DNA from: Raillietiella orientalis
Lineage: Eukaryota
DNA length: 64,000 nucleotides
NCBI GenBank assembly: GCA_036172245.1
Contig: JAYWIR010000100.1
Span: forward strand, 62,001-126,000
Direction: 5' to 3'
Under the pieces are notes generated by a model. It saw only the letters and a program-made list of their open reading frames with translations, had not been told where the DNA came from and did no database searches. The position numbers and the translations under genes are program-made. Of the stretch, positions 12,921 to 54,700 are shown in pieces; the first letter of the stretch is position 1; every line of letters starts with the position of its first letter.

Positions 12921-13196
12921 CATCCTCTGAAATCAGGAAATTGGAAGGCCGTGAGCCTCTCCATCACATGAATTTGCCACTCACTGCAAATAGCTGCTTC
13001 GTAAAGAGGAGCAAAACTGCAATGGAGAAATCCCCGGGTTTCGAATTGATTACACAGCCAGTAAGGTAGCAAATTTTTACCACTCTATGGATCAGAGCGA
13101 ACGAAAATATTCCTCTTCTTGGAACGACAGTGGTTACCATCAAGACAACACAGAAACCAAGGTACCACCCCCTCATCTAATTTCGAAAACTTCTCA

Positions 13197-31100: not shown

Positions 31101-34100
31101 TTACAAACCCTGAAAGTTTGCAAATTTTTACCACATACTGAAGTAGAGCGAAGGAAAAAATTCCTCTTCTAGGTACTACACTGGTTACCATGAAAACAAC
31201 ACAGAGACCAAAGTGCCACGGCCTAATGAAATTTCGAACTCTTCTTAATCATGCTCTGAAATTAGGAAATTGGAAGGACTTGAGCCTCTCCATGACGCGA
31301 ATTTGCCACTCACTGGAAATAGATGCTTTGTGAAGAGGTGCAAAACTGTTATGGAGAAATCCCCTGATTTCGAATTGATCACCAATCCTGAAAGGTTGCA
31401 AATTTTTGCCACATCTTGAATCAGAGCGAAGTATAAGATTCCTCTTCTAGGAACGACAGTGGTTACCATGAAGACAACACAGAGACCAAAGTAACACCCC
31501 CTAATCTGATTTCGAACACTTCTTAGTCATGCTCTGAAATCAGGAAAATGGAAGGCCGTGAGCCTCTCCATGACGGGAATTTGCCACTCACTGAAAATGT
31601 TTGCTAAGTAAAAAGGCGTAAAAGTGCTATAGTAAAATCCCCTGATTTCCAATTGTTTACAAACCATGAAAGTTTGCAAATTTTTACCACATACTGAATT
31701 AGAGCGAAGGAAACAATTCCTCTTCTAGGTACGACACTGCTTACCATGAAAACAACACAGAGACCAAAGTGCCACGCCCTAACCTAATTTCGAACTCTTC
31801 TTAGTCATCCTCTGAAATCAGGAAATTGGAAGGCCGTGAGCCTCTCCATGACATGAATTGGTCACTCACTGCAAAGTGATGCATCGTGAAGAGGAGCAAA
31901 ACTGCAATGGTGAAATCCCCTGATTTCGTATTGATTACAAAGCCTGTAAGGTAGCAAATTTTTACCACATCATGGATCAGAGCGAACGAAAATATTCCTC
32001 TTCTAGGTACGACACTGCTTACCGTGAAAACAACACAGAGACCAAAGTGCCACCCCCTAACCTAATTTCGAACCCTTCTAAGTCATCCTCTGAAATCAGG
32101 AAATTGGAAGGCCGTGAGCCTCTCCATGACATGAATTGGCCACTCACTGCAAATTGATGCATCGTGAAGAGGAGCAAAACTGCAATGGTGAAATCCCCTG
32201 ATTTCGAATTGATTACAAAGCCTGTAAGGTAGCAAATTTTTACCACATCATGGATCAGAGCGAACGAAAATATTCCTCTTCTAGGTACCACACTGCTTAC
32301 CATGAAAACAACACAGAGACCAAAGTGCCACCCCCTACTCTAATTTCGAACACTTCTTAATCATCCGCTGTAATCAGGAAATTGGAAGGCCTTGAGGCTT
32401 TCGATGACGGAAATTTGCCACTCACTGCAAATGTATGCTTAGTGAAAAGGCGCAAAAGTGCTATAGTAAAATCTTCTCATTTCCAATTGGTTACAAACCC
32501 TGAAAGTTTGCAAATTTTTACCACATTCTGAAGTAAAGCGAAGGAAAAAATTCCTCTTCTACGTACGACACTGGTTACTATTAAAACAACAGATAGACAA
32601 AAGTGCCACGCCCTAATCTAATTTCGAACACTTCATAATCATGCTCTGAAATCGGGAAATTTGTAGGGCTTTAGACTCTCCATGACGGGAATTTGGCACT
32701 TACTGCAAATGGATGCTTACTGAAAAGGGTCAATATTGCAACAGTTATATCCCCTGATTTCCAATTGTTTACAAAGCCTGAAAGGATGCAAATTTCTACT
32801 ACATCATGAATCAGAGCGAAGTATGAGATTCCTCTTCTAGGGACGACACTGCTTACCATGAAAACAACACAGAGACTAAAGTGCCATGCCCTAACCTATT
32901 TTCGACCTCTTCTTAGTCATCCTCTCAAATCAGGAAAATGGAAGGCCGTGAGACTCTCCATGACATGAATTTGCCACTCACTGAAAATAGATGCTTCGTT
33001 AGGAGGAGCAAAATTGCAATGGTGAAATCCCCTGATTTCGAATTGATTACAAAACCTGAAAAGTTGCAAATTACTACCATATTATGAAGCAGAACGAAGT
33101 ATAAGATTCCTCTTCTAGGTAGAACACTGTTTACCATGAAGACAACACAGAGACCAAAGTAACACCCCCTAATCTGATTTCGAACACTTCTTAGTCATGC
33201 TCTGAAATCAGGAAAATGGAAGGCCGTGAGCATCTCCATGACGGGAATTTGCCACTCACTGAAAATGTTTGCTTAGTAAAAAGGCGTAAAAGTGCTATAG
33301 TAAAATCCCCTGATTTCCAATTGGTTACAAACCATGAAAGTTTGCAAATTTTTACCACATACTGAATTAGAGCGAAGGAAACAATTCCTCTTCTAGGTAC
33401 GACACTGCTTACCATGAAAACAACACAGAGACGAAAGTGCCACGCCCTAACCTAATTTCGAACTCTTCTTAGTCATCCTCTGAAATCAGGAAATTGGAAG
33501 GCCGTGAGCCTCTCCATGACATGAATTGGCCACTCACTGCAAATTGTTGCATCGTGAAGAGGAGCGAAACTGCAATGGTGAAATCCCCTGATTTCGAATT
33601 GATTACAAAGCCTGTAAGGTAGCAAATTTTTACCACATCATGGATCAGAGCGAACGAAAATATTCCTCTTCTAGGTACGACACTGCTTACCATGAAAACA
33701 ACACAGAGACCAAAGTGCCACGCCCTAACCCAATTTCGAACTCTTCTTAGTCATCCTCTGAAATCAGGAAATTGGAAGGCCGTGAGCCTCTCCATGACAT
33801 GAATTGGACACTCACTGCAAATTGATGCATCGTGAAGAGGAGCGAAACTGCAATGGTGAAATCCCCTGATTTCGAATTGATTACAAAGCCTGTAAGGTAG
33901 CAAATTTGTACCACATCATGGATCAGAGCGAACGATGATATTCCTCTTCTAGGTACGACACTGCTTACCATGAAAACAACACAGAGACCAAAGTGCCACG
34001 CCCTAATCTAATTTCGAACACTTCTTAATCATCCGCTGTAATCAGGAAATTGGAAGGCCTTGAGGCTTTTCATGACGGAAATTTGCCACTCACTGCAAAT

Positions 34101-37100
34101 ATATGCTTAGTGAAAAGGCGCAAAAGTGCTATAGTAAAATCCCCTCATTTCCAATTGGTTACAAACCCTGAAAGTTTGCAAATTTTTACCACATACTGAA
34201 GTAGAGCGAAGGAAAAAATTCCTCTTCTACGTACGACACTGGTTACTATGAAAACAACAGATAGACAAAAGTGCAACGCCCCAATCTAATGTTGAACACT
34301 TCATAATCATGCTCTGAAATCGGGAAATTGGTAGGCCTTTAGACTCTCCATGACGGTAATTTGGCACTTACTGCAAATGGATGCTTACTGAAAATGGTCA
34401 ATATTGCAACAGTTATATCCCCTGATTTCCAATTGATTACAAAGCCTGAAAGGATGCAAATTTCTGCCACATCCTGAATGAGAGCGAAGTATATGATTCC
34501 TCTTCTAGGTACGACACTGCTTACCATGAAATTAACACAGAGACCAAAGTGCCACGCCCTAACCTAATTTCGAACCGTTCTTAGTCATCTTCTGAAATCA
34601 TTAGATTGGAAGGCCGTGAGCCTCTCCATGACGGGAATTTGGCACTGACTGCAAATTGATGCTTCGTGAAGAGGCGCAAAAGTGCAATAGTAAAATCCCC
34701 TCATTTCCAATTGGTTACAAACCCTGAAAGGTTGCAAATTTTTACCACATACTGAATTAGAGCGAAGGAAAAAATTCCTCTTCTAGGTACGACACTGGTT
34801 ACTATGAAAACAACAGATAGACCAAAGTGCCACGCCCTAATCTAATTTAGAACACTTCATAATCATCCTCTGAAATCGGGAAATTGGAAGGCCTTGAGCC
34901 TCTCCATGACGGGAATTTGCCACTTACTGCAAATGGATGATTAGTGAAAAGGCGCAATAGTGCAACAGTAATATCCCCTGATTTCCAATTGATTACAAAG
35001 CCTGAAAGGTTGCAAATTTTTACCACATGATGAATGAGAGCGTAGGAAAAGATTCCTTTTCTAGGTATGACACTGGTTACCATGAAAACAACAAAGAGTA
35101 AGAAGTGCCACGCCCTAACCTAATTTCGAACCCTTCTTAGTCATCCTCTGAAATCATGAAATTGGAAGTCCTTGAGCCTCTCCATGACTGGAATTTGCCA
35201 CTCACTGCAAATTGATGCTTCGTGAAGAGGAGCAAAACTGCAATGGAGAAATCCCCTGATTTCGAATTGATTACAAAGCCTGAAAGGGTGCAAATTTCTA
35301 CCACATCATGAATCAGAGCGAAGGAAAAGATTCCTCTTCTAGGAAAGACAGTGGTTAACAGGGAAACAACACAGAGACCAAAGCACCACCCTCTAATCTA
35401 ATTTAGAACACTTCATAATCATCCTCTGAATACGGGAAATTCGAAGGCCGTGAGCCTCTCCATGACGGGAATTTGCCACTCACTGGAAATAGATGATTCG
35501 TGAAGAGGTGCAAAACTGCAATGGAGGAATCCCCTAATTTCGAATTGATTACACAGCCTGAAAGGTTGCAAATTTCTACCACATTATGAATCAGAGCGAA
35601 CGAAAAGATTCCTTTTCTAGGTACGACACTGCTTACCATGAAAACAACACAGAGACCAAAGTGCCACGCCCTAACCTAATTTCGAACCCTTCTTAGTCAT
35701 CCTCTGAAATCAGGAAATTGGAAGGCCGTGAGCCTCTCCATGACATGAATTGGCCACTCACTGCAAATTGATGCATCGTGAAGAGGAGCAAAACTGCAAT
35801 GGTGAAATCCCCTGATTTCGAATTGATTACAAAGCCTGTAAGGTAGCAAATTTTTACCACATCATGGATCAGAGCGAGCGAAAATATTCCTCTTCTAGGT
35901 ACCACACTGCTTACCATGAAAACAACACAGAGACCAAAGTGCCACCCCCTACTCTAATTTCGAACACTTCTTAATCATCCGCTGTAATCAGGAAATTGGA
36001 AGGCCTTGAGGCTTTCGATGACGGAAATTTGCCACTCACTGCAAATGTATGCTTAGTGAAAAGGCGCAAAAGTGCTATAGTAAAATCTTCTCATTTCCAA
36101 TTGGTTACAAACCCTGAAAGTTTGCAAATTTTTACCACATACTGAAGTAAAGCGAAGGAAAAAATTCCTCTTCTACGTACGACACTGGTTACTATGAAAA
36201 CAACAGATAGACAAAAGTGCCACGCCCTAATCTAATTTCGAACACTTCATAATCATGCTCTGAAATCGGGAAAATGGTAGGGCTTTAGACTCTCCATGAC
36301 GGGAATTTGGCACTTACTGCAAATGGATGCTTACTGAAAAGGGTCAATATTGCAACAGTTATATCCCCTGATTTCCAATTGTTTACAAAGCCTGAAAGGA
36401 TGCAAATTTCTACCACATCATGAATCAGAGCGAAGTATGAGATTCCTCTTCTAGGGACGACACTGCTTACCATGAAAACAACACAGAGACTAAAGTGCCA
36501 TGCCCTAACCTATTTTCGACCTCTTCTTAGTCATCCTCTCAAATCAGGAAAATGGAAGGCCGTGAGACTCTCCATGACATGAATTTGCCACTCACTGAAA
36601 ATAGATGCTTCGTTAGGAGGAGCAAAATTGCAATGGTGAAATCCCCTGAATTCGAATTGATTACAAAACCTGAAAAGTTGCAAATTACTACCATATTATG
36701 GAGCAGAACGAAGTATAAGATTCCTCTTCTAGGTAGAACACTGTTTACCATGAAGACAACACAGAGACCAAAGTAACACCCCCTAATCTGATTTCGAACA
36801 CTTCTTAGTCATGCGATGAAATCAGGAAAATGGAAGGCCGTGAGCATCTCCATGACGGGAATTTGCCACTCACTGAAAATGTTTGCTTAGTAAAAAGGCG
36901 TAAAAGTGCTACAGTAAAATCCCCTGATTTCCAATTGGTTACAAACCATGAAAGTTTGCAAATTTTTACCACATACTGAATTAGAGCGAAGGAAACAATT
37001 CCTCTTCTAGGTACGACACTGCTTACCATGAAAACAACACAGAGACGAAAGTGCCACGCCCTAACCTAATTTCGAACTCTTCTTAGTCATCCTCTGAAAT

Positions 37101-37560
37101 CAGGAAATTGGAAGGCCGTGAGCCTCCCCATGACATGAATTGGCCACTCACTGCAAATTGATGCATCGTGAAGAGGAGCGAAACTGCAATGGTGAAATCC
37201 CCTGATTTCGAATTGATTACAAAGCCTGTAAGGTAGCAAATTTTTACCACATCATGGATCAGAGCGAACGAAAATATTCCTCTTCTAGGTACGACACTGC
37301 TTACCATGAAAACAACACAGAGACCAAAGTGCCACGCCCTAACCCAATTTCGAACTCTTCTTAGTCATCCTCTGAAATCTGGAAATTGGAAGGCCGTGAG
37401 CCTCTCCATGACATGAATTGGCCACTCACTGCAAATTGATGCATCGTGAAGAGGAGCGAAACTGCAATGGTGAAATCCCCTGATTTCGAATTGATTACAA
37501 AGCCTGTAAGGTAGCAAATTTGTACCACATCATGGATCAGAGCGAACGAAAATATTCCTC
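13197..37560. repeat. HOR domain II: homogeneous, variable-length HOR (8-13 monomers) built from monomer types A', H, I, J, C' and D'
   Basis: Private variants are J (GAATTGGCCACTCACTGCAAATTGATGCATCG), H (CTGAAAATGTTTGCTTAGTAAAA), I (GAAATTAGG...GATCACCAAGC), D' (CCTTTAGACTCTCC...AAAGGGTCAATATTGC) and C' (GCTTTCGATGACGG). A' monomers (TATTATGAAGCAG) start at ~13197, 15422, 18193, 20413, 24026, 27357, 32915 and 36529. Confidence 0.85.
32081..37560. repeat. Block duplication: ~32081-33950 recurs at ~35695-37560 (offset 3614 = 13 monomers)
   Basis: Shared private variants are GGTACCACACTG, CCCCCTACTCTAAT, AAAATCTTCTCATTT, GTGCCATGCCC, CGTTAGGAGG and GAGCATCTCC. ORF pairs 32671/36285, 32925/36539 and 33191/36805 are each offset by 3614. 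Confidence 0.88.
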
Positions 37561-37959
37561 TTCTAGGTACGATAGTGGTTACCATGAAAACAACACAGAG
37601 ACCAAAGTACCACGCCCGAACTTAATTTCGTACTATTCTTAATCATCCTCTGAAATCAGAAAATTTGAAGGCATTGAGCCTGTCCATGATGCGAATTTGG
37701 CACTGACTGCAAATAGATGCTTCGTGAAGACGAGCAAAACTGCAATTGTTAAATCCCCTGATTTCCGATTGATTACAAAACTTGAAAAGTTGCAAATTTC
37801 TACCACATCATGAATCAGAGCGAAGTACAAGATTGCTCTTCTAGGTAGTCTATGTTGTTTTTATGGTAATCAGAGTCCAAAGTGCCATGCTCTCATGAAA
37901 TTTCGAACTCTTCATGATCAGGCTCTTAAATCAGGAAATAGGAACGCCTTGAGCTTCTC

Positions 37960-40900
37960 CATGACATGAATTTCCACTCACTGCAAATAGATGCTTCGTG
38001 AAGAGGAGCAAAACTGCCGTGGTGAAATTCCCTGATTTCGAGTTGATTAAAAAACTACAAAAGTGGCAAATTACTACCATATAATGAATCAGAACGAAGT
38101 ATAAGATTCCTCTTCTAGGTAGGACACTGTTTACCATGAAAAGAACACAGAGACCAAAGTGCCACGCTTTAATCTAATTTCGAACTCTTCTTAATCATCC
38201 TCTGAAATTAGGAAATTGGAAGCCCTTGAGGCTCTTCATGACGGCAATTTTCCACTCACTGGAAATAGATGCTTCGCGAAGAGGTGCAAAATGCAATAGA
38301 GAAATCCCCTTCTTTCGAAATGATTACAAAGCCTGATAGGTTGCAAATTTTTACCACATCATGAATCAGAGCGAACGAAAAGATTCCTCTTCTAGGTACG
38401 ACAGTGGTTACCGTGAAAACAACAGATAGACCAAAGTGCCACGCCCAAATCTAATTTCGAACACTTCATAATCATCCTCTGAAAGCGGGAAATTGGAAGT
38501 CCTTGAGTATCTTCATGACGGGAATTTGCAACTTACTGCAAATGGATGCTTAGTGAAAAGGCGCAATAGTGCAACAGTAATATCCTCTGATTTCCAATTG
38601 ATTACAAAGCCGGAAAGGTTTCAAATTTTTACCACATCATGAATGAGAGCGAAGGAAAAGATTCCTTTTCTAGGTACGACACTGGTTACCATGAAAACAA
38701 CAAAGAGTAAAAAGTGCCACGGCCTAATGAACTCTCGAACTCTTCTTAATCATGCTCTGAAATCAGAAAATTGGAAGGCCTTTTGCCTCTCCATGACGCG
38801 AATTTGTCAGTGACTGCAAATAGATGCTTCGAGAGGAGGAGCAAAACAGCAATGGTGAAATCCCCTTATTTCCGATTGATTACAAAACTTGAAAACTTGC
38901 AAATTTCTACCACATCATGACTCAGAGCGAAGTACAAGATTGCTCTTCTAGGTAGTCTATGTTGTTTTTTTGGTAATCAGAGTCCAAAGTGCCATGCTCT
39001 CCTGAAATTTCGAACTCTTCATATTCAGTCTCTTAAATCAGGAAATTGGAATGCCTTGAGGCTTTCCATGACGGGAATTTGCCACTCACTGCAAATGGAT
39101 GCTTAGTGAAAAGGCGCGAAACTGCAATAGAAAAATCCCCTGATTTCCAAATGATTACAAAGACCGAAAAGATGCAAATTTCTACCACATCATGAATCAG
39201 AGCGAAGGAAAAGATTCTTCTTCTAGTTACGACACTGCTCACCATGAAAACAACACAGAGACCAAAGTGCCACGCACTAACCTTATTTCGAACACTTCTT
39301 AGTCATCCTCTGAAATCAGGAAATTGGAAGGCCGTGAGCCTCTCCATGACGGGAATTTGCCAGTCACTCCAAATGTATGCTTACTGAAAAGGCGCAAAAG
39401 TGCAATAGTGAAATGCCCTCATTTCCAATTGGTTACAAACACTGAAAGGTTGCAAATTTTTACCACATACTGAATTAGAGCGAAAGAAAAAATTCCTCTT
39501 CTAGTTACGACACTGCTTACCATGAAAACAACACAGAGACCAAAGTGCCACGCCCTAACCTAATTTCGAACACTCCATAATCATGTTCTGAAATCAGGAA
39601 ATTAGAAGGCCTTGAGCCTCTAAATGACGAGAATTTGCCACTCACTGGAAATAGATGATTCGTGAAGAGGTGCAAAACTTCAATGGAGGAATCCCCTAAT
39701 TTCGAATTGATTACACAGCCTGAAAGGTTGCAAATTTCTACCACATCATGAATCAGAGCGAAGGAAAAGATTCCTCTTCTAGGAACGACAGTGGTTACCA
39801 TGAAAACAACACAGAGTACAAAGTGCCACGGCGTAATGAAATTTCGAACTCTTCATAATCATGCTCTCAAATCAGCAAATTGGAAGGCCGTGAGCCTCTC
39901 CATGACGGGAAATTTCCACTCACTGGAAATACCTGCTTCGAGAAAAGGTGCAAAACTGCAATGGAGAAATCCTTGGGTTTCGAATTGATTACAAAACTTG
40001 AAAAGTTGCAAATTACTACCATATAATGAATCAGAACGAAGTATAAGATTCCTCTTCCAGGTAGGACACTGGTTACCATGAAAAGAACACAGAGACCAAA
40101 GTGCCACGCCCTAATCTAATTTCGAACTCTTCGTAATCATCCTCTGAAATCGGGAAATTGGAAGGCCTTGAGTCTCTTCATGACATGAATTTGCAACTTA
40201 CTGCGAATGCATGCTTAGTGAAAAGGCGCAATAGTGCAACAGTAATATCCTCTGATTTCCAATTGATTACAAAGCCGGAAAGGTTGCAAATTTCTACCAC
40301 ATCATGGATAACAGCGTACGAAAAGATTCCTCTTCTAGGTACGACAGTGATTACCATGAAAACTACATAGACTCCAAAGTTCCACGCCCTAATGATATTT
40401 CGGACTCTTCTAAAGCATACTCTGAAATCGGGAAATTGGTAGGCCTTGAGCTTCTCCATGACGGGAATTTGGCACTTACTGCAAATGGATGCTTACTGAA
40501 AAGGCGCAATATTGCAACAGTAATATCCCCTGATTTCCAATTGATTACAAAGCATGAAAGGATGCAAATTTTTACCACATGATGAATGAGAGCGTAGGAA
40601 AAGATTCCTTTTCTAGGTATGACACTGGTTACCATGAAAACAACAAAGAGTAAGAAGTGCCACGGCCTAATGAAATTTCCAACTCTTCGTAATCATCCTC
40701 TGAAAGCAAGAAATTGGAAGTCCTTGAGCATCTCCATGACTGGAATTTGCCACTCACTGCAAATAGATGCTTCGTGAAGAGGCGCAAAACTGCAATGGAG
40801 AAATCCCCTGATTTCGAATTGATTACAAAGCCTGAAAGGTTGCAAATTTCTACCACATCATGAATCAGAGCGAAGGAAAAGATTCCTCTTCTAGGAAAGA

Positions 40901-43900
40901 CAGTGGTTAACAGGGAAACAACACAGAGACCAAAGCACCACCCTCTAATCTGATTTGGAACACTTCATAATCATCCTCTGAAATCGGGAAATTCGAAGGC
41001 CGTGAGCCTCTCAATGACGGGAATTTGCCACTCACTGGAAATAGATGATTCGTGAAGAGGTGCAAAACTGCAATGGAGGAATCCCCTAATTTCGAATTGA
41101 TTACACAGCCTGAAAGGTTGCAAATTTCTACCACATCATGAATCAGAGCGAAGGAAAAGATTCCTCTTCTAGGAACGACAGTGGTTACCATGAAAACAAC
41201 ACAGAGTACAAAGTGCCACGGCCTAATGAAATTTCGAACTCTTCATAATCATGCTCTCAAATCAGCAAATTGGAAGGCCGTGAGCCTCTCCATGACGGGA
41301 AATTTCCACTCACTGGAAATACATGCTTCGAGAAAAGGTGCAAAACTGCAATGGAGAAATCCTTGGGTTTCGAATTGATTACAAAACTTGAAAAGTTGCA
41401 AATTACTACCATATAATGAATCAGAACGAAGTATAAGATTCCTCTTCCTGGTAGGACACTGGTTACCATGAAAAGAACACAGAGACCAAAGTGCCACGCC
41501 CTAATCTAATTTCGAACTCTTCGTAATCATCCTCTGAAATCGGGAAATTGGAAGGCCTTGAGTCTCTTCATGACATGAATTTGCAACTTACTGCGAATGC
41601 ATGCTTAGTGAAAAGGCGCAATAGTGCAACAGTAATATCCTCTGATTTCCAATTGATTACAAAGCCGGAAAGGTTGCAAATTTCTACCACATCATGGATA
41701 ACAGCGTACGAAAAGATTCCTCTTCTAGGTACGACAGTGATTACCATGAAAAGTACATAGACCCCAAAGTTCCACGCCCTAATGATATTTCGGACTCTTC
41801 TAAAGCATACTCTGAAATCGGGAAATTGGTAGGCCTTGAGCTTCTCCATGACGGGAATTTGGCACTTACTGCAAATGGATGCTTACTGAAAAGGCGCAAT
41901 ATTGCAACAGTAATATCTCCTGATTTCCAATTGATTACAAAGCATGAAAGGATGCAAATTTTTACCACATGATGAATGAGAGCGTAGGAAAAGATTCCTT
42001 TTCTAGGTATGACACTGGTTACCATGAAAACAACAAAGAGTAAGAAGTGCCACGGCCTAATGAAATTTCCAACTCTTCGTAATCATCCTCTGAAAGCAGG
42101 AAATTGGAAGTCCTTGAGCATCTCCATGACTGGAATTTGCCACTCACTGCAAATAGATGCTTCGTGAAGAGGCGCAAAACTGCAATGGAGGAATCCCCTA
42201 ATTTCGAATTGATTACACAGCCTGAAAGGTTGCAAATTTCTATTACATTATGAATCAGAGCGAACGAAAAGATTCCTCTTCTAGGTACGATAGTGGTTAC
42301 CATGAAAACAACACAGAGACCAAAGTACCACGCCCGAACTTAATTTCGTACTCTTCTTAATCATCCTCTGAAATCAGAAAATTGGAAGGCCTTGAGCCTC
42401 TCCATGATGCGAATTTGGCACTGACTGCAAATTGATGCTTCGTGAAGACGAGCAAAACTGCAATGGTGAAATCCCCTGATTTCCGATTGATTACAAAACT
42501 TGAAAAGTTGCAAATTTCTACCACATCATGAATCAGAGCGAAGTACAAGATTGCTCTTCTAGGTAGTCTATGTTGTTTCTATGGTAATCAGAGTCCAAAG
42601 TGCCATGCTCTCATGAAATTTCGAACTCATTATGATCAGGCTCTTAAATCAGGAAATTGGAACGCGCTCAGGCTTTCCATGACAAGAATTTGCCACTCAC
42701 TGCAAATGGATGCTGAGTGAAATGGCGCAAATCTGCCATTAAAAAATCCCCTGATTTCCAATTCATTACAAAACTTGAAAAGTTGCAAATTTCTACCACA
42801 TCATGAATCAGAGCGAAGTACAAGATTGCTCTTCTAGGTAGTCTATGTTGTTTTTATGGTAATCAGAGTCCAAAGTGCCATGCGCTGATGAAATTTCGAA
42901 CTCTATAATCATGCTCTTAAATCAGATAATTGGAAGGCCTTGAGGCTTTCCATTACGGGAATTTCCCACTCATTGCAAATGGATGCTTAGTAAAAAGGCG
43001 CAGAAGTGCTATAGTAAAATCCCCTGATTTCCAATTGGTTACAAACCCTGAAAGATTGCCAATTTTTACCACATACTGAATTAGAGCGAAGGAAAAAATT
43101 CCTCTTCTAGGTACGACACTGGTTACTATGACAACCACAGATAGACCAAAGTGCCCCGCCCTAATCTAATTTCGAACACTTCATAATCATCCTCTGAAAT
43201 CGTGAAATTCGAAGGCCTTGAGTCTCTTCATGACGGGAATTTGCCACTTACTGCAAATGGATGCTTAGTGAAAAGGAGCAATAGTGCAACAGTAATATCC
43301 TCTGATTTCCAATTGATTACAAAGCCGCAAAGGCTGCAAATTTCTACGACATCAAGAATCAGAGTGAAGTATAAGATTCCTCTTCTAGGTACTCTGTGTT
43401 GTTTTTATGGTAATCAGAGTCCAAAGTGCCATGCTCTCATGAAATTTCGAACTCTTCACAATGAGGCTCTTAAATCAGGAAATTGGAAGGCCTTGAGGCT
43501 TTCCATGACGGGAATTTGCCACTCATTGCAAATGGATGCTCAGTGAAAAGGCGCAAAAAAGCAATAGTAAAATCCCCTGATTTCCAATTGATTACAAAGC
43601 TGGAAAGGTTGCAAATTTTTACCACATCATGAATCAGAGCGAAGGAAAAGATTTCTTTTCTAGGTGCTACACTGGTTACCATGAAAACAACACAGAGTAC
43701 AAAGTGCCACGGCCTAATGAAATTTCGAACTTTTCTTAGTCATCCTCTGATATCAGGAAATTGGAAGGCCGTGAGCCTCTCCATGACATGAATTTGCCAC
43801 TCACTGCAAATAGATGCTTCGTGAAGAGGAGAAAAACTGCCGTGGTGAAATTCCCTGATTTCGAGTTGATTAAAAAACTACAAAAGTGGCAAATTACTAC

Positions 43901-46900
43901 CATATAATGAATCAGAACGAAGTATAAGATTCCTCTTCTAGGTAGGACACTGTTTACCATGAAAAGAACACAGAGACCAAAGTGCCACGCTTTAATCTAA
44001 TTTCGAACTCTTCTTAATCATCCTCTGAAATTAGGAAATTGGAAGCCCTTGAGGCTCTTCATGACGGCAATTTTCCACTCACTGGAAATAGATGCTTCGC
44101 GAAGAGGTGCAAAATGCAATGGAGAAATCCCCTTCTTTCGAAATGATTACAAAGCCTGATAGGTTGCAAATTTTTACCACATCATGAATCAGAGCGAACG
44201 AAAAGATTCCTCTTCTAGGTACGACAGTGGTTACCGTGAAAACAACAGATAGACCAAAGTGCCACGCCCAAATCTAATTTCGAACACTTCATAATCATCC
44301 TCTGAAAGCGGGAAATTGGAAGTCCTTGAGTATCTTCATGACGGGAATTTGCAACTTACTGCAAATGGATGCTTAGTGAAAAGGCGCAATAGTGCAACAG
44401 TAATATCCTCTGATTTCTAATTGATTACAAAGCCGGAAAGGTTTCAAATTTTTACCACATCATGAATGAGAGCGAAGGAAAAGATTCCTTTTCTAGGTAC
44501 GACACTGGTTACCATGAAAACAACAAAGAGTAAAAAGTGCCACGGCCTAATGAACTCTCGAACTCTTCTTAATCATGCTCTGAAATCAGAAAATTGGAAG
44601 GCCTTTTGCCTCTCCATGACGCGAATTTGTCAGTGACTGCAAATAGATGCTTCGAGAGGAGGAGCAAAACAGCAATGGTGAAATCCCCTTATTTCCGATT
44701 GATTACAAAACTTGAAAACTTGCAAATTTCTACCACATCATGACTCAGAGCGAAGTATAAGATTCCTCTTCTAGGTACTCTGTGTTGTTTTTATGGTAAT
44801 CAGAGTCCAAAGTGCCATGCTCTCATGAAATTTCGAACTCTTCACAATGAGGCTCTTAAATCAGGAAATTGGAATGCCTTGAGGCTTTCCATGACGGGAA
44901 TTTGCCACTCACTGCAAATGGATGCTTAGTGAAAGGGCGCGAAACTGCAATAGAAAAATCCCCTGATTTCCAAATGATTACAAAGACCGAAAAGATGCAA
45001 ATTTCTACCACATCATGAATCAGAGCGAAGGAAAAGGTTCTTCTTCTAGTTACGACACTGCTCACCATGAAAACAACACAGAGACCAAAGTGCCACGCAC
45101 TAACCTTATTTCGAACACTTCTTAGTCATCCTCTGAAATCAGGAAATTGGAAGGCCGTGAGCCTCTCCATGACGGGAATTTGCCAGTCACTCCAAATGTA
45201 TGCTTACTGAAAAGGCGCAAAAGTGCAATAGTGAAATGCCCTCATTTCCAATTGGTTACAAACACTGAAAGGTTGCAAATTTTTACCACATACTGAATTA
45301 GAGCGAAAGAAAAAATTCCTCTTCTAGTTACGACACTGCTTACCATGAAAACAACACAGAGACCAAAGTGCCACGCCCTAACCTAATTTCGAACACTCCA
45401 TAATCATGTTCTGAAATCAGGAAATTAGAAGGCCTTGAGCCTCTAAATGACGAGAATTTGCCACTCACTGGAAATAGATGATTCGTGAAGAGGTGCAAAA
45501 CTTCAATGGAGGAATCCCCTAATTTCGAATTGATTACACAGCCTGAAAGGTTGCAAATTTCTACCACATCATGAATCAGAGCGAAGGAAAAGATTCCTCT
45601 TCTAGGAACGACAGTGGTTACCATGAAAACAACACAGAGTACAAAGTGCCACGGCGTAATGAAATTTCGAACTCTTCATAATCATGCTCTCAAATCAGCA
45701 AATTGGAAGGCCGTGAGCCTCTCCATGACGGGAAATTTCCACTCACTGGAAATACCTGCTTCGAGAAAAGGTGCAAAACTGCAATGGAGAAATCCTTGGG
45801 TTTCGAATTGATTACAAAACTTGAAAAGTTGCAAATTACTACCATATAATGAATCAGAACGAAGTATAAGATTCCTCTTCCAGGTAGGACACTGGTTACC
45901 ATGAAAAGAACACAGAGACCAAAGTGCCACGCCCTAATCTAATTTCGAACTCTTCGTAATCATCCTCTGAAATCGGGAAATTGGAAGGCCTTGAGTCTCT
46001 TCATGACATGAATTTGCAACTTACTGCGAATGCATGCTTAGTGAAAAGGCGCAATAGTGCAACAGTAATATCCTCTGATTTCCAATTGATTACAAAGCCG
46101 GAAAGGTTGCAAATTTCTACCACATCATGGATAACAGCGTACGAAAAGATTCCTCTTCTAGGTACGACAGTGATTACCATGAAAACTACATAGACTCCAA
46201 AGTTCCACGCCCTAATGATATTTCGGACTCTTCTAAAGCATACTCTGAAATCGGGAAATTGGTAGGCCTTGAGCTTCTCCATGACGGGAATTTGGCACTT
46301 ACTGCAAATGGATGCTTACTGAAAAGGCGCAATATTGCAACAGTAATATCCCCTGATTTCCAATTGATTACAAAGCATGAAAGGATGCAAATTTTTACCA
46401 CATGATGAATGAGAGCGTAGGAAAAGATTCCTTTTCTAGGTATGACACTGGTTACCATGAAAACAACAAAGAGTAAGAAGTGCCACGGCCTAATGAAATT
46501 TCCAACTCTTCGTAATCATCCTCTGAAAGCAAGAAATTGGAAGTCCTTGAGCATCTCCATGACTGGAATTTGCCACTCACTGCAAATAGATGCTTCGTGA
46601 AGAGGCGCAAAACTGCAATGGAGAAATCCCCTGATTTCGAATTGATTACAAAGCCTGAAAGGTTGCAAATTTCTACCACATCATGAATCAGAGCGAAGGA
46701 AAAGATTCCTCTTCTAGGAAAGACAGTGGTCAACAGGGAAACAACACAGAGACCAAAGCACCACCCTCTAATCTGATTTGGAACACTTCATAATCATCCT
46801 CTGAAATCGGGAAATTCGAAGGCCGTGAGCCTCTCAATGACGGGAATTTGCCACTCACTGGAAATAGATGATTCGTGAAGAGGTGCAAAACTGCAATGGA

Positions 46901-48780
46901 GGAATCCCCTAATTTCGAATTGATTACACAGCCTGAAAGGTTGCAAATTTCTACCACATCATGAATCAGAGCGAAGGAAAAGATTCCTCTTCTAGGAACG
47001 ACAGTGGTTACCATGAAAACAACACAGAGTACAAAGTGCCACGGCCTAATGAAATTTCGAACTCTTCATAATCATGCTCTCAAATCAGCAAATTGGAAGG
47101 CCGTGAGCCTCTCCATGACGGGAAATTTCCACTCACTGGAAATACATGCTTCGAGAAAAGGTGCAAAACTGCAATGGAGAAATCCTTGGGTTTCGAATTG
47201 ATTACAAAACTTGAAAAGTTGCAAATTACTACCATATAATGAATCACAACGAAGTATAAGATTCCTCTTCCTGGTAGGACACTGGTTACCATGAAAAGAA
47301 CACAGAGACCAAAGTGCCACGCCCTAATCTAATTTCGAACTCTTCGTAATCATCCTCTGAAATCGGGAAATTGGAAGGCCTTGAGTCTCTTCATGACATG
47401 AATTTGCAACTTACTGCGAATGCATGCTTAGTGAAAAGGCGCAATAGTGCAACAGTAATATCCCCTGATTTCCAATTGATTACAAAGCCGGAAAGGTTGC
47501 AAATTTCTACCACATCATGGATAACAGCGTACGAAAAGATTCCTCTTCTAGGTACGACAGTGATTACCATGAAAACTACATAGACTCCAAAGTTCCACGC
47601 CCTAATGATATTTCGGACTCTTCTAAAGCATACTCTGAAATCGGGAAATTGGTAGGCCTTGAGCTTCTCCATGACGGGAATTTGGCACTTACTGCAAACG
47701 GATGCTTACTGAAAAGGCGCAATATTGCAACAGTAATATCCCCTGATTTCCAATTGATTACAAAGCATGAAAGGATGCAAATTTTTACCACATGATGAAT
47801 GAGAGCGTAGGAAAAGATTCCTTTTCTAGGTATGACACTGGTTACCATGAAAACAACAAAGAGTAAGAAGTGCCACGGCCTAATGAAATTTCCAACTCTT
47901 CGTAATCATCCTCTGAAAGCAGGAAATTGGAAGTCCTTGAGCATCTCCATGACTGGAATTTGCCACTCACTGCAAATAGATGCTTCGTGAAGAGGCGCAA
48001 AACTGCAATGGAGGAATCCCCTAATTTCGAATTGATTACACAGCCTGAAAGGTTGCAAATTTCTATTACATTATGAATCAGAGCGAACGAAAAGATTCCT
48101 CTTCTAGGTACGATAGTGGTTACCATGAAAACAACACAGAGACCAAAGTACCACGCCCGAACTTAATTTCGTACTCTTCTTAATCATCCTCTGAAATCAG
48201 AAAATTGGAAGGCCTTGAGCCTCTCCATGATGCGAATTTGGCACTGACTGCAAATTGATGCTTCGTGAAGACGAGCAAAACTGCAATGGTGAAATCCCCT
48301 GATTTCCGATTGATTACAAAACTTGAAAAGTTGCAAATTTCTACCACATCATGAATCAGAGCGAAGTACAAGATTGCTCTTCTAGGTAGTCTATGTTGTT
48401 TCTATGGTAATCAGAGTCCAAAGTGCCATGCTCTCATGAAATTTCGAACTCATTATGATCAGGCTCTTAAATCAGGAAATTGGAACGCGCTCAGGCTTTC
48501 CATGACAAGAATTTGCCACTCACTGCAAATGGATGCTGAGTGAAAAGGCGCAAAACTGCCATTAAAAAATCCCCTGATTTCCAATTCATTACAAAACTTG
48601 AAAAGTTGCAAATTTCTACCACATCATGAATCAGAGCGAAGTACAAGATTGCTCTTCTAGGTAGTCTATGTTGTTTTTATGGTAATCAGAGTCCAAAGTG
48701 CCATGCGCTGATGAAATTTCGAACTCTATAATCATGCTCTTAAATCAGATAATTGGAAGGCCTTGAGGCTTTCCATTACG
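37960..48780. repeat. HOR domain III: near-identical ~5 kb duplication with a 5823-bp period (21 monomers); copies at ~37960-42957 and ~43783-48780
   Basis: ORF pairs are offset by exactly 5823 (39033/44856, 39517/45340, 40158/45981, 42357/48180). 21x278=5838, and the 15-bp shortfall matches the visible deletions: 4x3 bp in inversion monomers, 1 bp near 38290 and 2 bp near 42904. Confidence 0.92.
39580..42359. repeat. Two tandem copies of a 5-mer HOR (1390 bp); the pair recurs at ~45403-48182
   Basis: ORF pairs are offset by exactly 1390 (5x278): 39517/40907, 39791/41181, 40158/41548, 40304/41694 and 40629/42019. Confidence 0.92.
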
Positions 48781-51700
48781 TTAATTTCCCACTCACTGCA
48801 AATGTATTCTTAGTGAAAAGGCTCAAAAGTGCTATAGTAAAATCCCCTGATTTCGAATTGATTACAAAGCCTGAAAGGTTGCAAATTTCTACCACATCAT
48901 GAATCAGAGCGAAGGAAAAGATTCCTCTTCTAGGAACGACAGTGGTTACCATGAAAACAACACAGAGTACAAAGTACCACGGCCTAATGAAATTTCGAAC
49001 TCTTCATAATCAGGCACTTAAATCAGGAAATTAGAAAGCCTTGAAACTTTGCATGACATGAATTTGCCACTCACTGCAAATAGATGCTTTATGAAGAGGA
49101 GCACAATTGCAATGGTGAAATTCCCTGATTTCGAATTGATTACAAAACTTGAAAAGTTTCAAATTACTACCATATAATGAATCAGAACGAAATCTAAGAT
49201 TACTCTTCTAGGTAGGACACTGTTTACCATGAAAACAACACAGAGACCAAAGTGCCACGCCCTAATCTAATTTCGAACTCTTCTTAATCATCCTCTTAAA
49301 TCAGGAAATTGGAAGCCCTTGAGGATCTTCATGACGGCAATTTGCCACTCACTGGAAATAGATGCTTCGCGAAGAGGTGCAAAACTGTAATGGATAAATT
49401 ACCGTGTTTCGAATTGATTACAAAGCCTGTAAGGTAGCAAGTTTTAACACATCATGGATCAGAGCGAACGAAAATATTCCTCTTCTAGGAACGACAGTGG
49501 TTACCATGAAGTCAACACAGAGATCGAAGTACCACCCCCTAATCTAATTTCGAACACTTCTTAATCATCCGCTGTAATCAGGAAATTGGAAGGCCTTGAG
49601 GCTTTCCATGACGGAAATTTGCTACTAACTGCAAATAGATGCTTAGTGAAAAGGCGCAAAAGTGCTATAGAAAAATCCCCTGATTTCCAATTGGTTGCAA
49701 ACCCTGAAAGTTTGCAAATTGTTACCACATACTGAATTAGAGCGAAGGAAAAAATTCTCTTCTAGGTACGACACTGGTTACTATGAAAACAACAGATCGA
49801 CCCAAGTGCCACGCCCTAATCTAATTTCGAAGACTTCATAATCATCCTCTGAACTCGGTAAATTGGAATGCCTTGAGTCTCTTCATGACGGGAATTTGCC
49901 ACTTACTGCAAATGTATGCTTAGTGAAAAGGCGCAATAGTGCAACAGTAATATCCTCTGATTTCCAATTGATTACAAAGCCGGAAAGGTTGCAAATTTTT
50001 ACCACATCATGAATCAGAGCGAAGGAAAAGATTACTTTTCTAGGTACGACACTGCTTACCATGAAAACAATACAGAGAACAAAGTGCCACGCCCTAACCA
50101 ATTTTCGACATCTTCTTAGTCATCCTCTGAAATCAGGAAATTGGAAGGCCGTGAGCCTCTCCATGACATGAATTTGCCACTCACTGCAAATAGATGCTTC
50201 GTGAAGAGGAGCAAAACTGCAATGGTGAAATTCCCTGATTTCGAATTGATTACAAAACTTGAAAAGTGGCAAATTACTACCATATAATGAATAAGAACGA
50301 AGTATAAGATTCCTCTTCCAGGTAGGACACTGTTTACCATGAAAACAACACAGAGACCAAAGTGCCACGCCCTAATCTAATTTCGAACTCTTCTTAATCA
50401 TCCTCTGAAATCAGGAAATTGGAAGCCCTTGAGGCTCTTCATGACGGCGATTTGCCACTCAATGGAAATAGATTCTTAGCGAAGAGGTGCAAAACTGCAA
50501 TGGAGAAATCCCCGTGTTTCGAATTGATTACAAAGCCTGTAAGGTAGCAAATTTTTACCACTTCATGGATCAGAGCGAACGAAAATATTTCTCTTCTTGG
50601 AACGACAGTGGTTACCATTAAGACAACACAGAGACCAAAGTACCACCCCCTATTCTAATTTCGAACACTTCTTAATCATCCGCTGTAATCAGGAAATTGG
50701 AAGGCCTTGAGGCTTTCTATGACGGGAATTTGCTACTAACTGCAAATAGATGCTTAGTGAAAAGGCGCAAAAGTGCAAAATTAAAATCCCCTGATTTCAA
50801 ATTGGTTACAAACCCTGAAAGTTTGCAAATTTTTACCACATACTGAAGTAGAGCGAAGGAAAAAATTCCTCTTCTAGGTACGACACCGGTTACTATGAAA
50901 ACAACAGATAGACTAAGGTGCCACGGCCTAATCTAATTTCGAAGACTTCATAATCATCCGCTGAAATCGGGAAATTGGAAGGCCTTGAGGCTTTCCATGA
51001 CGGGAATTTGCCACTCATTGCAAATGGATGCTTAGTAAAAAGGCGCAAAAAAGCAATAGTAAAATCCCCTGATTTCCAATTGATTACAAAGCTGGAAAGG
51101 TTGCAAATTTTTACCACATCATGAATCAGAGCGAAGGAAAAGATTTCTTTTCTAGGTGCTACACTGGTTACCATGAAAACAACACAGAGTACAAAGTGCC
51201 ACGGCCTTATGAAATTTCGAACTTTTCTTAGTCATCCTCTGATATCAGGAAATTGGAAGGCCGTGAGCCTCTCCTTGACGGGAATTTGCCACTCACTGCA
51301 AATAGATGCTTCGTGAAGAGGAGCAAAACTGCAATGGAGAAATCCCCGGGTTTCGAAGTGATTACAAAGCCTGTAAGGTAGCAAATTTCTATCACATCAT
51401 GGATAACAGCGAACGAAAAGATTCCTCTTCCAGGTACGACAGTGATTACCATGAAAACAACGCAGACTCCAAAGTTCCAGGCCCTAATGATATTTCGGAC
51501 TCTACTTAATCATGCTCTGAAATCGGAAAATTGGTAGGCCTTGAGCCTCTCCATGACGGGAATTTGCCACTCACTGCAAATAGATGCTTCGTGAAGAGGC
51601 GCAAAACTGCAATAGAGAAATCACCTGATTTCGAATTGATTACAAAGCCTGAAAGGTTGCAAATTTCTACCACATCATGAATGGGAGCGAACGAAAAGAT

Positions 51701-54700
51701 TCCTCTTCTAGGAAAGACAGTGGTTACCATGAAAACAACACAGAGTACAAAGTGCCACGGCCTAATGAAATTTCGAACTTTTCTTAGTCATCCTCTGATA
51801 TCAGGAAATTGGAAGCCCGTGAGCCTCTCCTTGACGGGAATTTGCCACTCACTGCAAATAGATGCTTCGTGAAGAGGAGCAAAACTGCAATGGAGAAATC
51901 CCCTGATTTCGAATTGATTACAAAGCCTGAAAGGCAGCAAATTTCTATCACATCATGGATAACAGCGCACGAAAAGATTCCTCTTCCAGGTACGACAGTG
52001 ATTACCATGAAAACAACACAGACTCCAAAGTTCCAGGCCTTAATGATATTTCCGACTCTTCTTAATCATGCTCTGAAATCGGGAAATTGGTAGGCCTTGA
52101 GCCTCTCCATGACGCGAATTTGTCACTGACTGCAAATAGATGCTTCGTGAGGAGGAGCAAAACAGCAATGGTGAAATCCCCTTATTTCCGATTGATTACA
52201 AAACTTGAAAACTTGCAAATTTCTACCACATCATGACTCAGAGCGAAGTACAAGATTGCTCTTCTAGGTAGTCTATGTTGTTTTTATGGTAATCGGAGTC
52301 CAAATTGCCATGCTCTCATGAAATTTCGAACTCTTCATGATCAGGCTCTTAAATCAGGAAATTGGAACGCCTTGAGGCTTTCCATGACAAGAATTTGCCA
52401 CTCACCTCAAATGGATGCTTAGTGAAAAGGCGCAGAAGTGCTATAGTAAAATCCCCTGATTTCCAGTTGGTTACAAAACCTTAAAGTTTGCAAATTTTTA
52501 CCACATACTGAATTAGAGCGAAGGAAAAAATTCCTCTTCTAGGTACGACACTGGTTACTATGAAAACAACAGATAGACCAAAGTGCCACGCCCTAATCTA
52601 ATTTCGAACTCTTCTTAATCATCCTCTGAAATCAGGAAATTGGATGCCGTTGAGGCTCTTAATGACTGCAATTTGCGACTGAATGGAAATAGATGCTTCG
52701 CGAAGAGGTGCAAAACTGCAATGGAGAAATCCCCGGGTTTCGAATTGATTACAAAGCCTGAAAGGTTGCAAATTTCTACCACATCATGAATCAGAGCGAA
52801 CAAAAAGATTCCACTTTTAGGAAAAACAGTGGTTACTATGAAAACAACACAGAGACCAAAGTACCACCCCCTAATCTAATATCGAACACTTCAAAATCAT
52901 CCTCTGAAATCGAGAAATTGGAAGGCCGTGAGCCTCTCCATGACATGAATTTGCCACTCACTGCAAATAGATGCTTCGTGAAGAGGCGCAAAACTGCAAT
53001 GGAGAAATCCCCTGATTTCGAATTGATTCCAGAATTTGAAAAGTTTCAAATTACTACCATATAATGAATCAGAACGAAGTATAAGATTCCTCTTCTAGGA
53101 AGGACACTGTTTACCATGAAAACAACACAGAGACCAAAGTGCCACGCCCTATTCTAATTTCGAACTCTTCTTAATCATTCTCTTAAATCAGGAAATTGGA
53201 AGCCCTTGAGGATCTTCATGACGGCAATTTGCCCCTCACTGGAAATAGATGCTTCGCGAAGAGGTGCAAAACTGTAATGGAGAAATTACCGTGTTTCGAA
53301 TTGATTACAAAGCCTGTAAGGTAGCAAGTTTTAACACATCATGGATCAGAGCGAACGAAAATATTCCTCTTCTAGGAACGACAGTGGTTACCATGAAGTC
53401 AACACAGAGATCGAAGTACCACCCCCTAATCTAATTTCGAACTTCTCTTAGTCATCCTGTGATATCAGGAAATTGGAAGGCCGTGAGGCTCTTCATGACG
53501 GCAATTTGCCACTCACTGGAAATAGATGCTTCGCGAAGAGGTGCAAAACTGCAATGGAGAAATTCCCGGGTTTCGAATTGATTACAAAGCCTGTAAGGTA
53601 GCAAATTTTTACCACATCATGGATCAGAGGGAACGAAAATATTCCTTTTCTAGGAACGACAGTGGTTACCATTAAGACAACACAGAGACCAAAGTGCCAC
53701 CCCCTAATCTAATTTCGAACACTTCTTAATCATCCGCTGTAATTAGGAAATTGGAAGGCCTTGAGGCTTTCCATGACGGGAATTTGCCACTTACTGCAAA
53801 TGTATGCTTAGTGAAAAGGCGCAATAGTGCAACAGTAATATCCTCTGATTTCCAATTGATTACAAAGCCGTAAAGGTTTCAAATTTTTACCACATCATGA
53901 ATCAGAGCGAAGGAAAAGATTACTTTTCTAGGTACGACACTGGTTACCATGATAACAACACAGAGCACAAAGTGCCACGGCCTATTCAAATGTCGAACTC
54001 TTCTTAATCATGCTCTGAAATGGGGAAATTGGTAGGCCTTGAGCCTCTCCATAACAAGAATTTGCCACTCACTGCAAATAGATGCTTCGTGAAGAGGAGC
54101 AAAACTGCAATGGAGAAATCCCCGGGTTTCGAATTGATTACACAGCCTGTAAGGTAGCAAATTTTTACCACTCTATGGATCAGAGCGAACGAAAATATTC
54201 CTCTTCTTGGAACGACAGTGGTTACCATTAAGACAACACAGAGACCAAAGTACCACCCCCTAATCAAATTTCGAACACTTCTCAATCATCCTCTGAAATC
54301 AGGAAATTGGAAGTCCGTGAGCCTCTCCATGACATGAATTTGCCACTCACTGCAAATAGATGCTTCTTGAAAAGGAGCAAAACTGCAATGGTGAAATTCC
54401 CTGATTTCGAATTGTTTACAAAACTTGAAAAGTTGCAAATTACTACCATATAATGAAACAGAACGAAGTATAACATTCCTCTTCCAGGTAGGACACTGTT
54501 TACCATGAAAACAACACAGAGACCAAAGTGCCACGCCCTAATCTAATTTCGAACTCTTCTTACTCATCCTCTGAAATCAGGAAATTGGAAGCCCTTGAGG
54601 CTCTTTATGACGGCGATTTGCCACTCACTGGAAATAGATGCTTCGCTAAGAGGTGCAAAACTGCAATGGAGAAATCCCCGGGTTTCGAATGGATTACAAA

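Follow-up and report, generated by a model that had tools for sequence, protein, structure and literature searches.

We found that 10 of the 231 monomers of a satellite array carry a short box in reversed orientation, and the evidence supports a single origin for this micro-inversion, which was afterward multiplied within the array. The array occupies the window, by which we mean the whole 64-kb stretch of DNA that was analyzed. Taken as a whole, the reading that we judge probable is that a single template switch reversed the box, that local satellite turnover spread it, that the allele reading GTAC/TCTGTG is the older of its two forms, and that the variant is likely to be a neutral marker.

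The entire window is one satellite array, in which a 278-bp unit is repeated head to tail. TRF returned a period of 278 with 230.1 copies and 82% matches, and a single monomer used as a BLAST query against the window gave 231 hits, all on the plus strand; since bases 1–142 are a more diverged copy of the unit, the array fills the window. The modal monomer length was 278 bp (178 of 230 monomers), the longest open reading frames were about one monomer long, and an Rfam scan of 42000–45000 found no families. The array is, thus, satellite DNA by definition, a long tandem unit with no coding capacity. A single regular multi-monomer period, which would make it an HOR array, was sought among its duplications and none was found; what we observed were nested local duplications at lags of 5, 13, 18, 21, and 43 monomers (lag range 5–86), of which the best was lag 21, extending over 17 monomers. 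Two conserved patterns of the monomer gave no matches in metagenome contigs, four monomer stretches of 15–20 nt had no occurrence in the published papers searched, and, among the listings of literature on 278 bp centromere satellites, none was recognizable as this repeat. An exact 22-nt match in a Niallia taxi scaffold, from a search of prokaryote contigs, was set aside as chance, the rest of the 6-kb locus giving only weak short fragments (next best E-value 0.057). The monomer also contains an imperfect inverted repeat of its own, and the chance similarity arising from it was picked up in a k-mer scan of the window for inverted segments.

At 43389, the sequence reads GTAC, then a 29-mer (43393–43421), and then CAAAG. 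This 29-mer matched the reverse complement of 7857–7885 at 26/29 positions, as had been described from a first reading, compared to 2/29 for the forward copy (i.e., 27/29 positions are mismatched in a forward alignment of the box). The binomial chance of at least 26/29 matches is about 9e-13. We then scanned the whole window without gaps, using the reverse complement of the normal box as the query and allowing up to nine mismatches. Exactly 10 sites were returned, with three to five mismatches each (24–26/29 matches), and they lie in the same 10 monomers that had been listed before, with no inverted box before 37.8 kb in the window. The same scan found nothing in any of five mononucleotide shuffles of the window. 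The box in its normal, forward orientation occurred 221 times, so that monomers with the inverted box (hereafter carriers) make up 10/231. All 10 carriers fall within the last 95 of the 231 monomers (p = 1e-4, or p = 0.004 if they are counted as six older lineages). Carrier monomers are about 3 bp short: the 275 bp first given for the variant holds for 7 of the 10, while 1 measures 274 bp and 2 measure 273 bp, and there is no full-length (278 bp) carrier among the 10. Apart from the carriers, the k-mer scan of the window revealed no other inverted segment. The change in the box is a true local inversion.

Two alleles of the inverted box were present, as previously noted, with GTAC plus TCTGTG in 2 carriers (43389 and 44775) and GTAG plus TCTATG in the other 8. 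They differ at four linked positions (−17, −10, +4, and +8). The GTAC/TCTGTG allele at 43389 is the nearest to an exact reverse complement, and we suggest that GTAC/TCTGTG is the older allele, with GTAG/TCTATG probably derived from it. The sites are collected in the table together with the other features discussed below.

Table. Inverted boxes and related features of the satellite array (positions within the window).
Feature	Positions	Strand	Basis or remark
278-bp satellite array, about 230 copies head to tail	143..64000	.	TRF, BLAST, ORF lengths, Rfam
Inverted box, GTAG/TCTATG allele, monomer 37845	37849..37877	.	4 mismatches
Inverted box, GTAG/TCTATG allele, monomer 38952	38956..38984	.	5 mismatches
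Inverted box, GTAG/TCTATG allele, monomer 42563	42567..42595	.	5 mismatches
Inverted box, GTAG/TCTATG allele, monomer 42838	42842..42870	.	4 mismatches; adjoins carrier 42563
Inverted box, GTAC/TCTGTG allele, monomer 43389–43663	43393..43421	.	3 mismatches to reverse complement of 7857–7885
Inverted box, GTAC/TCTGTG allele, monomer 44775–45049	44779..44807	.	3 mismatches
Inverted box, GTAG/TCTATG allele, monomer 48386	48390..48418	.	5 mismatches
Inverted box, GTAG/TCTATG allele, monomer 48661	48665..48693	.	4 mismatches
Inverted box, GTAG/TCTATG allele, monomer 52268	52272..52300	.	5 mismatches
Inverted box, GTAG/TCTATG allele, monomer 62822	62826..62854	.	5 mismatches
Haplotype common to carriers, for monomer 43389 (about −97 to +112 from monomer start)	43292..43500	.	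Sliding 30-column comparison, private variants, clade
Duplication copy 1 (about 5 kb, 18 monomers), source or partner	37975..42950	.	Offset 5823
Duplication copy 2	43798..48773	.	Offset 5823 comparison
Short gene-conversion tract, carrier 44775 copy (−17 to +78)	44758..44852	.	State of carrier 43389
Normal monomer, best-fitting stand-in for the pre-inversion state (GTAC..., right GAGTCC)	24507..24784	.	One template switch, 2 mismatches/52 nt
Monomer first taken as canonical, the sole normal monomer with GTAC on both sides	7853..8130	.	1/221

Several lines of evidence support the view that the inversion arose once. The junctions and the 3-bp shortfall are identical in all 10 carriers, and the flanks hold variants that are nearly or wholly private to them: a C>T change at position 47 is found in 10/10 carriers and 2/220 non-carriers, and C at −17 in 8/10 carriers and 0/220 non-carriers. 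In a tree built from 172 flank columns, with the box excluded, the carriers formed one exclusive clade (support 92) with a single state change, and a tree from 87 columns, again with the box excluded, likewise required the carrier state to change once. No normal monomer was nested among the carriers on the flank trees. Beyond the shared haplotype, however, carriers are mosaic and no more similar to one another than random monomers are, and over the distal 154 columns carrier monophyly was rejected (p-AU 0.0009), with seven changes. The single origin proposed in the preliminary description is, therefore, borne out for the box and its immediate flanks, though not along the whole monomer, and the inversion is, as also proposed there, the marker of a lineage that arose once and then multiplied. 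We infer that the change ran from normal to inverted, because 221 normal boxes stand against 10 inverted ones and because the carrier flanks come closest to those of one normal subtype (monomers 59487, 48934, 46996, and 41173, of the GAAC...GAGTAC type).

We modeled the origin of the inversion by enumerating, from 219 complete non-carrier monomers, all one-step products of the form "keep, copy the reverse complement, resume." The best one-step source, monomer 24507, left two mismatches in 52 nt and accounted for the 3-bp loss, with switch points 1 at 12–15, 3 at 18–22, 4 at 38–42, and 2 at 42–45; this source admits 20 solutions of equal quality, and paralogous monomers stand in for the ancestor. 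Three mismatches were left with the 24 sources of the majority box type and with the 4 sources of the GAAC...GAGTAC type, and for the majority type the order 1-3-2-4, equivalent to a flip plus a 3-bp loss, fitted as well as 1-3-4-2. By comparison, a strict flip from monomer 7853 with a separate 3-bp deletion left five mismatches, three of them within the box. Every model left over two to three box mismatches, which must be either later substitutions or traits of a source since lost, and the monomers nearest to the carriers in their flanks (the GAAC...GAGTAC type) differ from the best source in the box models (24507).

These fits suggest that a replication error in one monomer of the noncoding satellite reversed about 21–29 nt. 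In such a short-range template switch, the growing strand would have taken the opposite strand as its template for a short stretch before going back to its own. With switch points ordered 1-3-4-2, CAGAG would be used twice, about 26 nt would be replaced by about 23 nt, and the inverted spacer would be left between the two arms of a short perfect inverted repeat (ACTCTG ... CAGAGT). With the switch points placed in this way, one event would both reverse the segment and shorten the monomer by 3 bp, and the separate loss of GTA at the right junction that had been assumed is not needed, even though the monomers are indeed about 3 bp short. It had also been assumed that the switch, or a microhomology-mediated inversion, used two GTAC palindromes flanking the box. 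Such a mechanism fits, but the best-fitting models use other microhomologies of 2–4 nt, and the two palindromes are not a general property of the satellite: both are present in only 1/221 normal monomers (7853). At positions 34–37, non-carriers read GACC in 134/221 cases and GTAC in 11/221, and the right flank GAGTAC of the monomer taken as canonical is a minority state. The edges of the inverted box can be read as GAC/GTC, GTAC/GTAC, or ACTCTG/CAGAGT.

A hairpin intermediate is not indicated, because the inverted repeats beside the box are short and the DNA folds no better than shuffled sequence: compared with 200 shuffles, the normal form gave z = 0.28 and the carrier form z = −1.16, with 27/200 shuffles folding as well. 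Hairpin-loop inversions in organelle DNA are small and recurrent, and they occur on strong stems in surroundings that stay fixed. The satellite inversion resembles them in that short inverted repeats bound a segment that is reversed within unchanged surroundings, but the organelle inversions recur on strong stems, whereas the carriers go back to one origin, their stems are weak, and their fold is not significant.

The micro-inversion is best described as a mutation of a class already known from PMC5453318 and PMC8755829, as far as its sequence allows it to be placed. The former is the source of the switch-point order classes used here for template-switch mutations, none of which puts point 4 ahead of point 1. 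As in that class, a fragment appears to have given way in one step to the reverse complement of an overlapping fragment close by, a linear alignment renders the change as a cluster of substitutions with a small indel, a short perfect inverted repeat surrounds the inverted spacer, and point 4 does not come before point 1. Three marks of the class are found in the satellite inversion as well, namely a nearby reverse complement, a single event that beats the linear alignment, and an allowed order of points. However, template switches of this class were called between close genomes with a known ancestor, while the ancestor here is deduced from paralogous monomers, with two to three mismatches and ambiguous points, and, unlike those, the present event sits in a tandem repeat, where it was afterward copied 10-fold. 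In PMC8755829, 59 microinversions of 17–33 nt are reported, all flanked by inverted repeats of 3–75 nt. The satellite inversion is like these in size (21–29 nt) and in its short flanking inverted repeats of 3–7 nt. Those cases are mostly exact reverse complements of unchanged length, whereas ours matches at 26/29 at best and is 3 bp shorter; set against the wording of the abstract for a definite microinversion, its length and flanking repeats agree, but its reversal is neither exact nor length-neutral.

According to PMC8755829, break-induced replication explains cases of this sort better than a classic template switch does, and the preference given there to break repair where the repeats flanking a microinversion are short and imperfect lends weight to a two-step origin. 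Here, a clean 29-nt flip between GTAC sites or between GAC/GTC ends, through break repair or microhomology-mediated break-induced replication, would have been followed by a 3-bp deletion before the variant spread. Monomer 7853, with GTAC on both sides, is a possible substrate, the normal monomers nearest in their flanks have the right-hand GTAC, and a flip plus loss fits the majority box type, at three mismatches, as well as any model does. We nevertheless consider this origin unlikely, since it needs one event more, and, when started from 7853, it costs three box mismatches and a deletion, whereas the best one-step product costs two mismatches and needs nothing further; in addition, no 278-bp intermediate is seen among the carriers, and a normal monomer with both GTACs is a rarity. 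A single template switch remains the mechanism that we infer.

Once formed, the inverted monomer was multiplied locally by ordinary satellite turnover, through a segmental duplication of about 5 kb, a smaller duplication of three monomers, unequal exchange that broke within monomers, and gene conversion over short tracts. The duplications and a conversion tract are directly visible in the array. The first copy of the 5-kb duplication holds carriers 38952 and 42563 along with roughly the first 110 bp of carrier 42838, and the second holds carriers 44775 and 48386 and the start of carrier 48661, so that this duplication accounts for three carriers. Over the lag-21 run, monomers m137–153 and m158–174 are 99.5% identical, and a comparison at offset 5823 over 38000–42800 gave 24 mismatches, 10 of which cluster at 38935–39029. 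Outside the box, carrier 48386, a recent duplicate of carrier 42563, is 99.2% identical to it, and carrier 48661 shares 92.5% identity with its partner, carrier 42838. The three-monomer run m138–140 is 98.1% identical to m224–226, and carrier 62822 is a close copy of carrier 38952 (98.8% identity outside the box). The conversion tract lies in the copy holding carrier 44775, where 10/12 differences from the 38952-type copy take the state of carrier 43389, 1386 bp upstream. Thus, from −278 to −18, the 44775 copy is identical to the 38952 copy and differs from the 43389 copy at 55 positions, but, from −18 to +19, it differs from the former at 5 positions and from the latter at none.

The earlier proposal that the variant was later amplified is, therefore, right in that it was multiplied, but too simple in that carriers share only about 200 bp and are mosaic beyond, with at least one conversion tract having moved an allele between carriers. 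Satellite subfamilies are generally formed and homogenized locally by unequal crossing-over, segmental duplication, and gene conversion. The carriers fit this picture, since a variant of single origin has spread locally by block duplication (99.5% over 5 kb) and by conversion tracts of about 95–180 bp; they differ from it in that the marker is a structural micro-inversion rather than a set of point substitutions and that the duplications are nested, without a regular HOR.

Most probably, the inverted-box variant is neutral and simply marks a lineage, and its sequence gives no indication of a function for the reversed box. It had been said to flip one of the best-conserved boxes of the monomer, and the 29-nt box does rank 8th among 278 windows in conservation, but the margin is small, with a mean of 0.924 compared to 0.893 overall (range 0.83–0.93). 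That rank, and the persistence of carriers through several rounds of duplication and conversion, could be taken to mean that the box is a putative site for a chromatin or kinetochore protein, that reversal alters its phasing or orientation, and that selection favored the spread. We regard such selection as very unlikely, since, besides the small margin of conservation, carriers are few and lie in a single part of the array, duplications that copied many non-carriers too explain their multiplication in full, and a CENP-B-box-like motif (allowing up to one mismatch) gave one match in the window, compared to 5.96 expected by chance. Still less to be expected is the fuller form of the idea, in which the box would be an oriented protein site and the carriers a distinct functional subdomain of altered phasing or chromatin whose spread was favored; if it were true, the micro-inversion would amount to a natural orientation-swap experiment inside a satellite.

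A sequencing or assembly artifact, which a satellite so hard to assemble might invite, is highly improbable, since the 10 copies differ by box substitutions and by 1–21% outside the box, and since they lie in different neighborhoods with a linked haplotype of their own, as random error would not produce; at most, the number of near-identical duplicates (44775, 48386, and 48661) could be an assembly matter. Scarcely credible is recurrent flipping between short terminal inverted repeats, with the carriers as several independent events, for, although the box ends are weakly self-complementary (GAC...GTC, or 6/7 in GAGTCC-type monomers), two alleles exist, and the distal halves of carriers belong to different monomer types, all 10 share the shortfall, the box substitutions, and the private flank variants as one exclusive clade with one state change and no normal monomer within it, the alleles are explained by four linked substitutions plus a conversion tract, and the k-mer scan of the window revealed no further inverted segment.

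Because the same form is very unlikely to arise twice, a micro-inversion marks descent more cleanly than point mutations do. Among the published work surveyed, mostly titles and the opening parts of abstracts, we found no micro-inversion inside a satellite monomer serving as a lineage marker, and one passage mentions short inversions in general terms. Apart from serving as a marker, the inversion is an ordinary mutation that belongs to a known class. What it reveals is that the variant travels on a block of about 200 bp, shorter than one repeat unit, and that conversion tracts of about 95–180 bp and duplications of 5 kb are both at work in the array. Given reads and the whole genome, the inversion could, as a marker, trace exchange between arrays and between chromosomes.

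The entire 64-kb window is a single head-to-tail array of a non-coding 278-bp repeat. TRF gave a period of 278 with 230 copies and 82% matches, and one monomer used as a BLAST query against the window gave 231 matches, all plus-strand. The longest ORFs span about one monomer, leaving no coding capacity, and an Rfam search of 42-45 kb for structured RNA returned no families. No regular higher-order repeat was found in the window, which instead holds nested local duplications (lags of 5, 13, 18, 21 and 43 monomers, and others); adjacent monomers are more diverged in the first ~13 kb (identity 0.80) than in 13-37 kb (0.84). The G+C content is 41%. CpG dinucleotides are rarer than expected (observed/expected 0.63) and TG commoner (1.37), and at several CpG sites of the consensus TG or CA occurs as a variant; one such change is the C>T at position 47, linked to the carriers described below. 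A methylated genome would be consistent with this pattern. The conserved box treated below has an exact match of 22 nt in a Niallia taxi scaffold (locus 3001-3022), which did not extend and was dismissed as chance.

Ten monomers, referred to here as carriers and named by their start coordinates, contain a 29-nt box in inverted orientation. At 43389, the sequence reads GTAC, a 29-mer and CAAAG; compared with the box at 7857-7885, the 29-mer agrees at 26 of 29 positions when that box is reverse-complemented and at only 2 in its forward orientation (chance of at least 26/29 matches, ~1e-12). In an ungapped scan, exhaustive over the window and tolerating up to 9 mismatches, the reverse-complemented box occurred at exactly ten sites with 3-5 mismatches apiece, the same ten as in the preliminary description, and the forward box at 221; five shuffled windows yielded no hits. 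A k-mer scan of the window for further inverted segments found none besides the carriers; false signals in the inversion scan arose from an imperfect inverted repeat internal to the monomer, whose arms AATTTGCCAC and GTTGCAAATT lie in opposite halves. The inversion is confirmed, as are its two alleles, GTAC+TCTGTG (n = 2) and GTAG+TCTATG (n = 8). The carrier length of 275 bp proposed earlier holds for seven of the ten, the others being 274 (one) or 273 bp (two), against a mode of 278 for all monomers. No carrier lies outside the final 95 of the 231 monomers (p = 1e-4; p = 0.004 with the carriers counted as six older lineages).

The flanks of the box differ from those first described. Among the 221 normal monomers, 134 have GACC at positions 34-37 and 11 have GTAC, and the supposedly canonical box between two GTAC palindromes is atypical, occurring in 7853 only. 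Carriers have GTCC at these positions, as do two normal monomers (19221 and 24507). The box does rank among the best-conserved segments (8th of 278 windows), but by a slight margin (0.924 versus a mean of 0.893).

Coordinates of features in the array.
Feature	Position	Remark
Gene-conversion tract in monomer 44775	44758-44852	Compare 38935-39029 (bunched mismatches) and 43372-43466 (carrier 43389)
Clearest duplication	37975-42950	Copied to +5823
286-bp monomer	19775-20060	~8 bases (CATGAAA...) tandemly repeated within conserved box; a small slippage duplication
Irregular repeat	3159-3700	One monomer alignable only up to position 201
Segment without alignment to repeat	3360-3428	~70 bases; next unit 263 bp, box strongly diverged
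Long-range imperfect inverted repeat	38523-38534 (example)	~127-136 and ~224-233 of each monomer

We compared variants and built flank trees with the box itself excluded. Carriers share C>T at position 47 (10/10 versus 2/220 non-carriers), A>C at 53 (8/10 versus 2/220), T>G at 80 (8/10 versus 3/220), and, upstream, C at -17 (8/10 versus 0/220) and G at -10 (8/10 versus 2/220). A tree on the 87 columns directly 3' of the box required one change of carrier state and placed the ten carriers in an exclusive group, as did a tree on 172 columns (-97..-1 and +38..+112; branch support 92). Polyphyly in the linked flanks, which was to have refuted a single origin, was therefore not found, and the single origin proposed earlier stands. 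In a sliding comparison, carriers were distinctive only within about -97 to +112. Across the distal 154 columns, carrier state required 7 changes, and a tree keeping carriers together was 122 lnL units worse and was rejected (p-AU 0.0009); their right halves match differing normal monomers (for example, 43389 with 50878, and 42838 and 52268 with 60042). The marker therefore rides on mosaic monomers.

For the mechanism, we enumerated template switches from every complete normal monomer, keeping sequence to point 1, appending the stretch between points 3 and 2 in reverse-complemented form and resuming at point 4. With 24507, the best source, the product differed from carrier 43389 at 2 of 52 nt (point 1 at 12-15, 3 at 18-22, 4 at 38-42, 2 at 42-45). 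The switch points thus run 1-3-4-2, and each junction has 3-4 nt of microhomology. The 24 monomers with the majority box left three mismatches, as did the 4 of the GAAC...GAGTAC type; the flanks of the latter are the closest to those of the carriers. One short switch of order 1-3-4-2 would yield the inversion, with the 3-bp loss automatic; in its product, a perfect inverted repeat of 6 nt brackets the inverted spacer. We infer a template switch from this enumeration, in which every model leaves 2-3 mismatches, many switch points are equivalent and normal monomers stand in for the ancestor. Break-induced replication instead of a replication switch would be indistinguishable. An exact flip combined with a distinct 3-bp deletion, as first proposed, fits equally well for the majority box type, but starting from 7853 it gives 5 mismatches (3 within the box), versus 2 in the best one-step model. 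Folds of the box in normal and carrier form gave no significant hairpin.

The template-switch product matches the type 1-3-4-2 outcome in PMC5453318, where this type is given as 23% of high-confidence human-chimp events, and the inverted segment lies within the 17-33 nt of the microinversions described in PMC8755829, all with flanking inverted repeats of 3-75 nt. The inverted box belongs to a known class, a short template-switch mutation or microinversion, here inside a satellite monomer and then copied ten-fold. An incomplete literature search found no description of such an inversion marker in a satellite; the idea itself is unsurprising.

The clearest duplication, whose copies mismatch at 24 positions from 38000 to 42800, doubles carriers 38952 and 42563, plus the start of 42838, and a three-monomer block around 38952 is repeated at 62822 with 98.1% identity. 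About six older carrier lineages are left, 79-91% identical outside the box. Ten of the 24 mismatches are bunched, and apart from these the two copies of the 5-kb duplication are 99.7% identical. In monomer 44775, the ten clustered differences span -17 to +78 (~95 bp) and all have the states of carrier 43389, whereas the 260 bp upstream show 0 differences from the 38952 copy versus 55 from 43389. This is a short gene-conversion tract, with carrier 43389, 1.4 kb away, as the donor; it explains how monomers that are almost identical elsewhere come to bear different alleles, and it is a clean instance of short-tract conversion within a satellite.

Nothing in the sequence points to a function of the inverted box; a CENP-B-box-like motif had 1 match in the window versus 5.96 expected by chance. 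Since the duplications that multiplied carriers also copied many non-carriers, they account for carrier multiplication. The inverted box is a real and neat finding, if an otherwise ordinary one, and can serve as a lineage marker; it also offers a modest direct look at how long conversion tracts are in a satellite.
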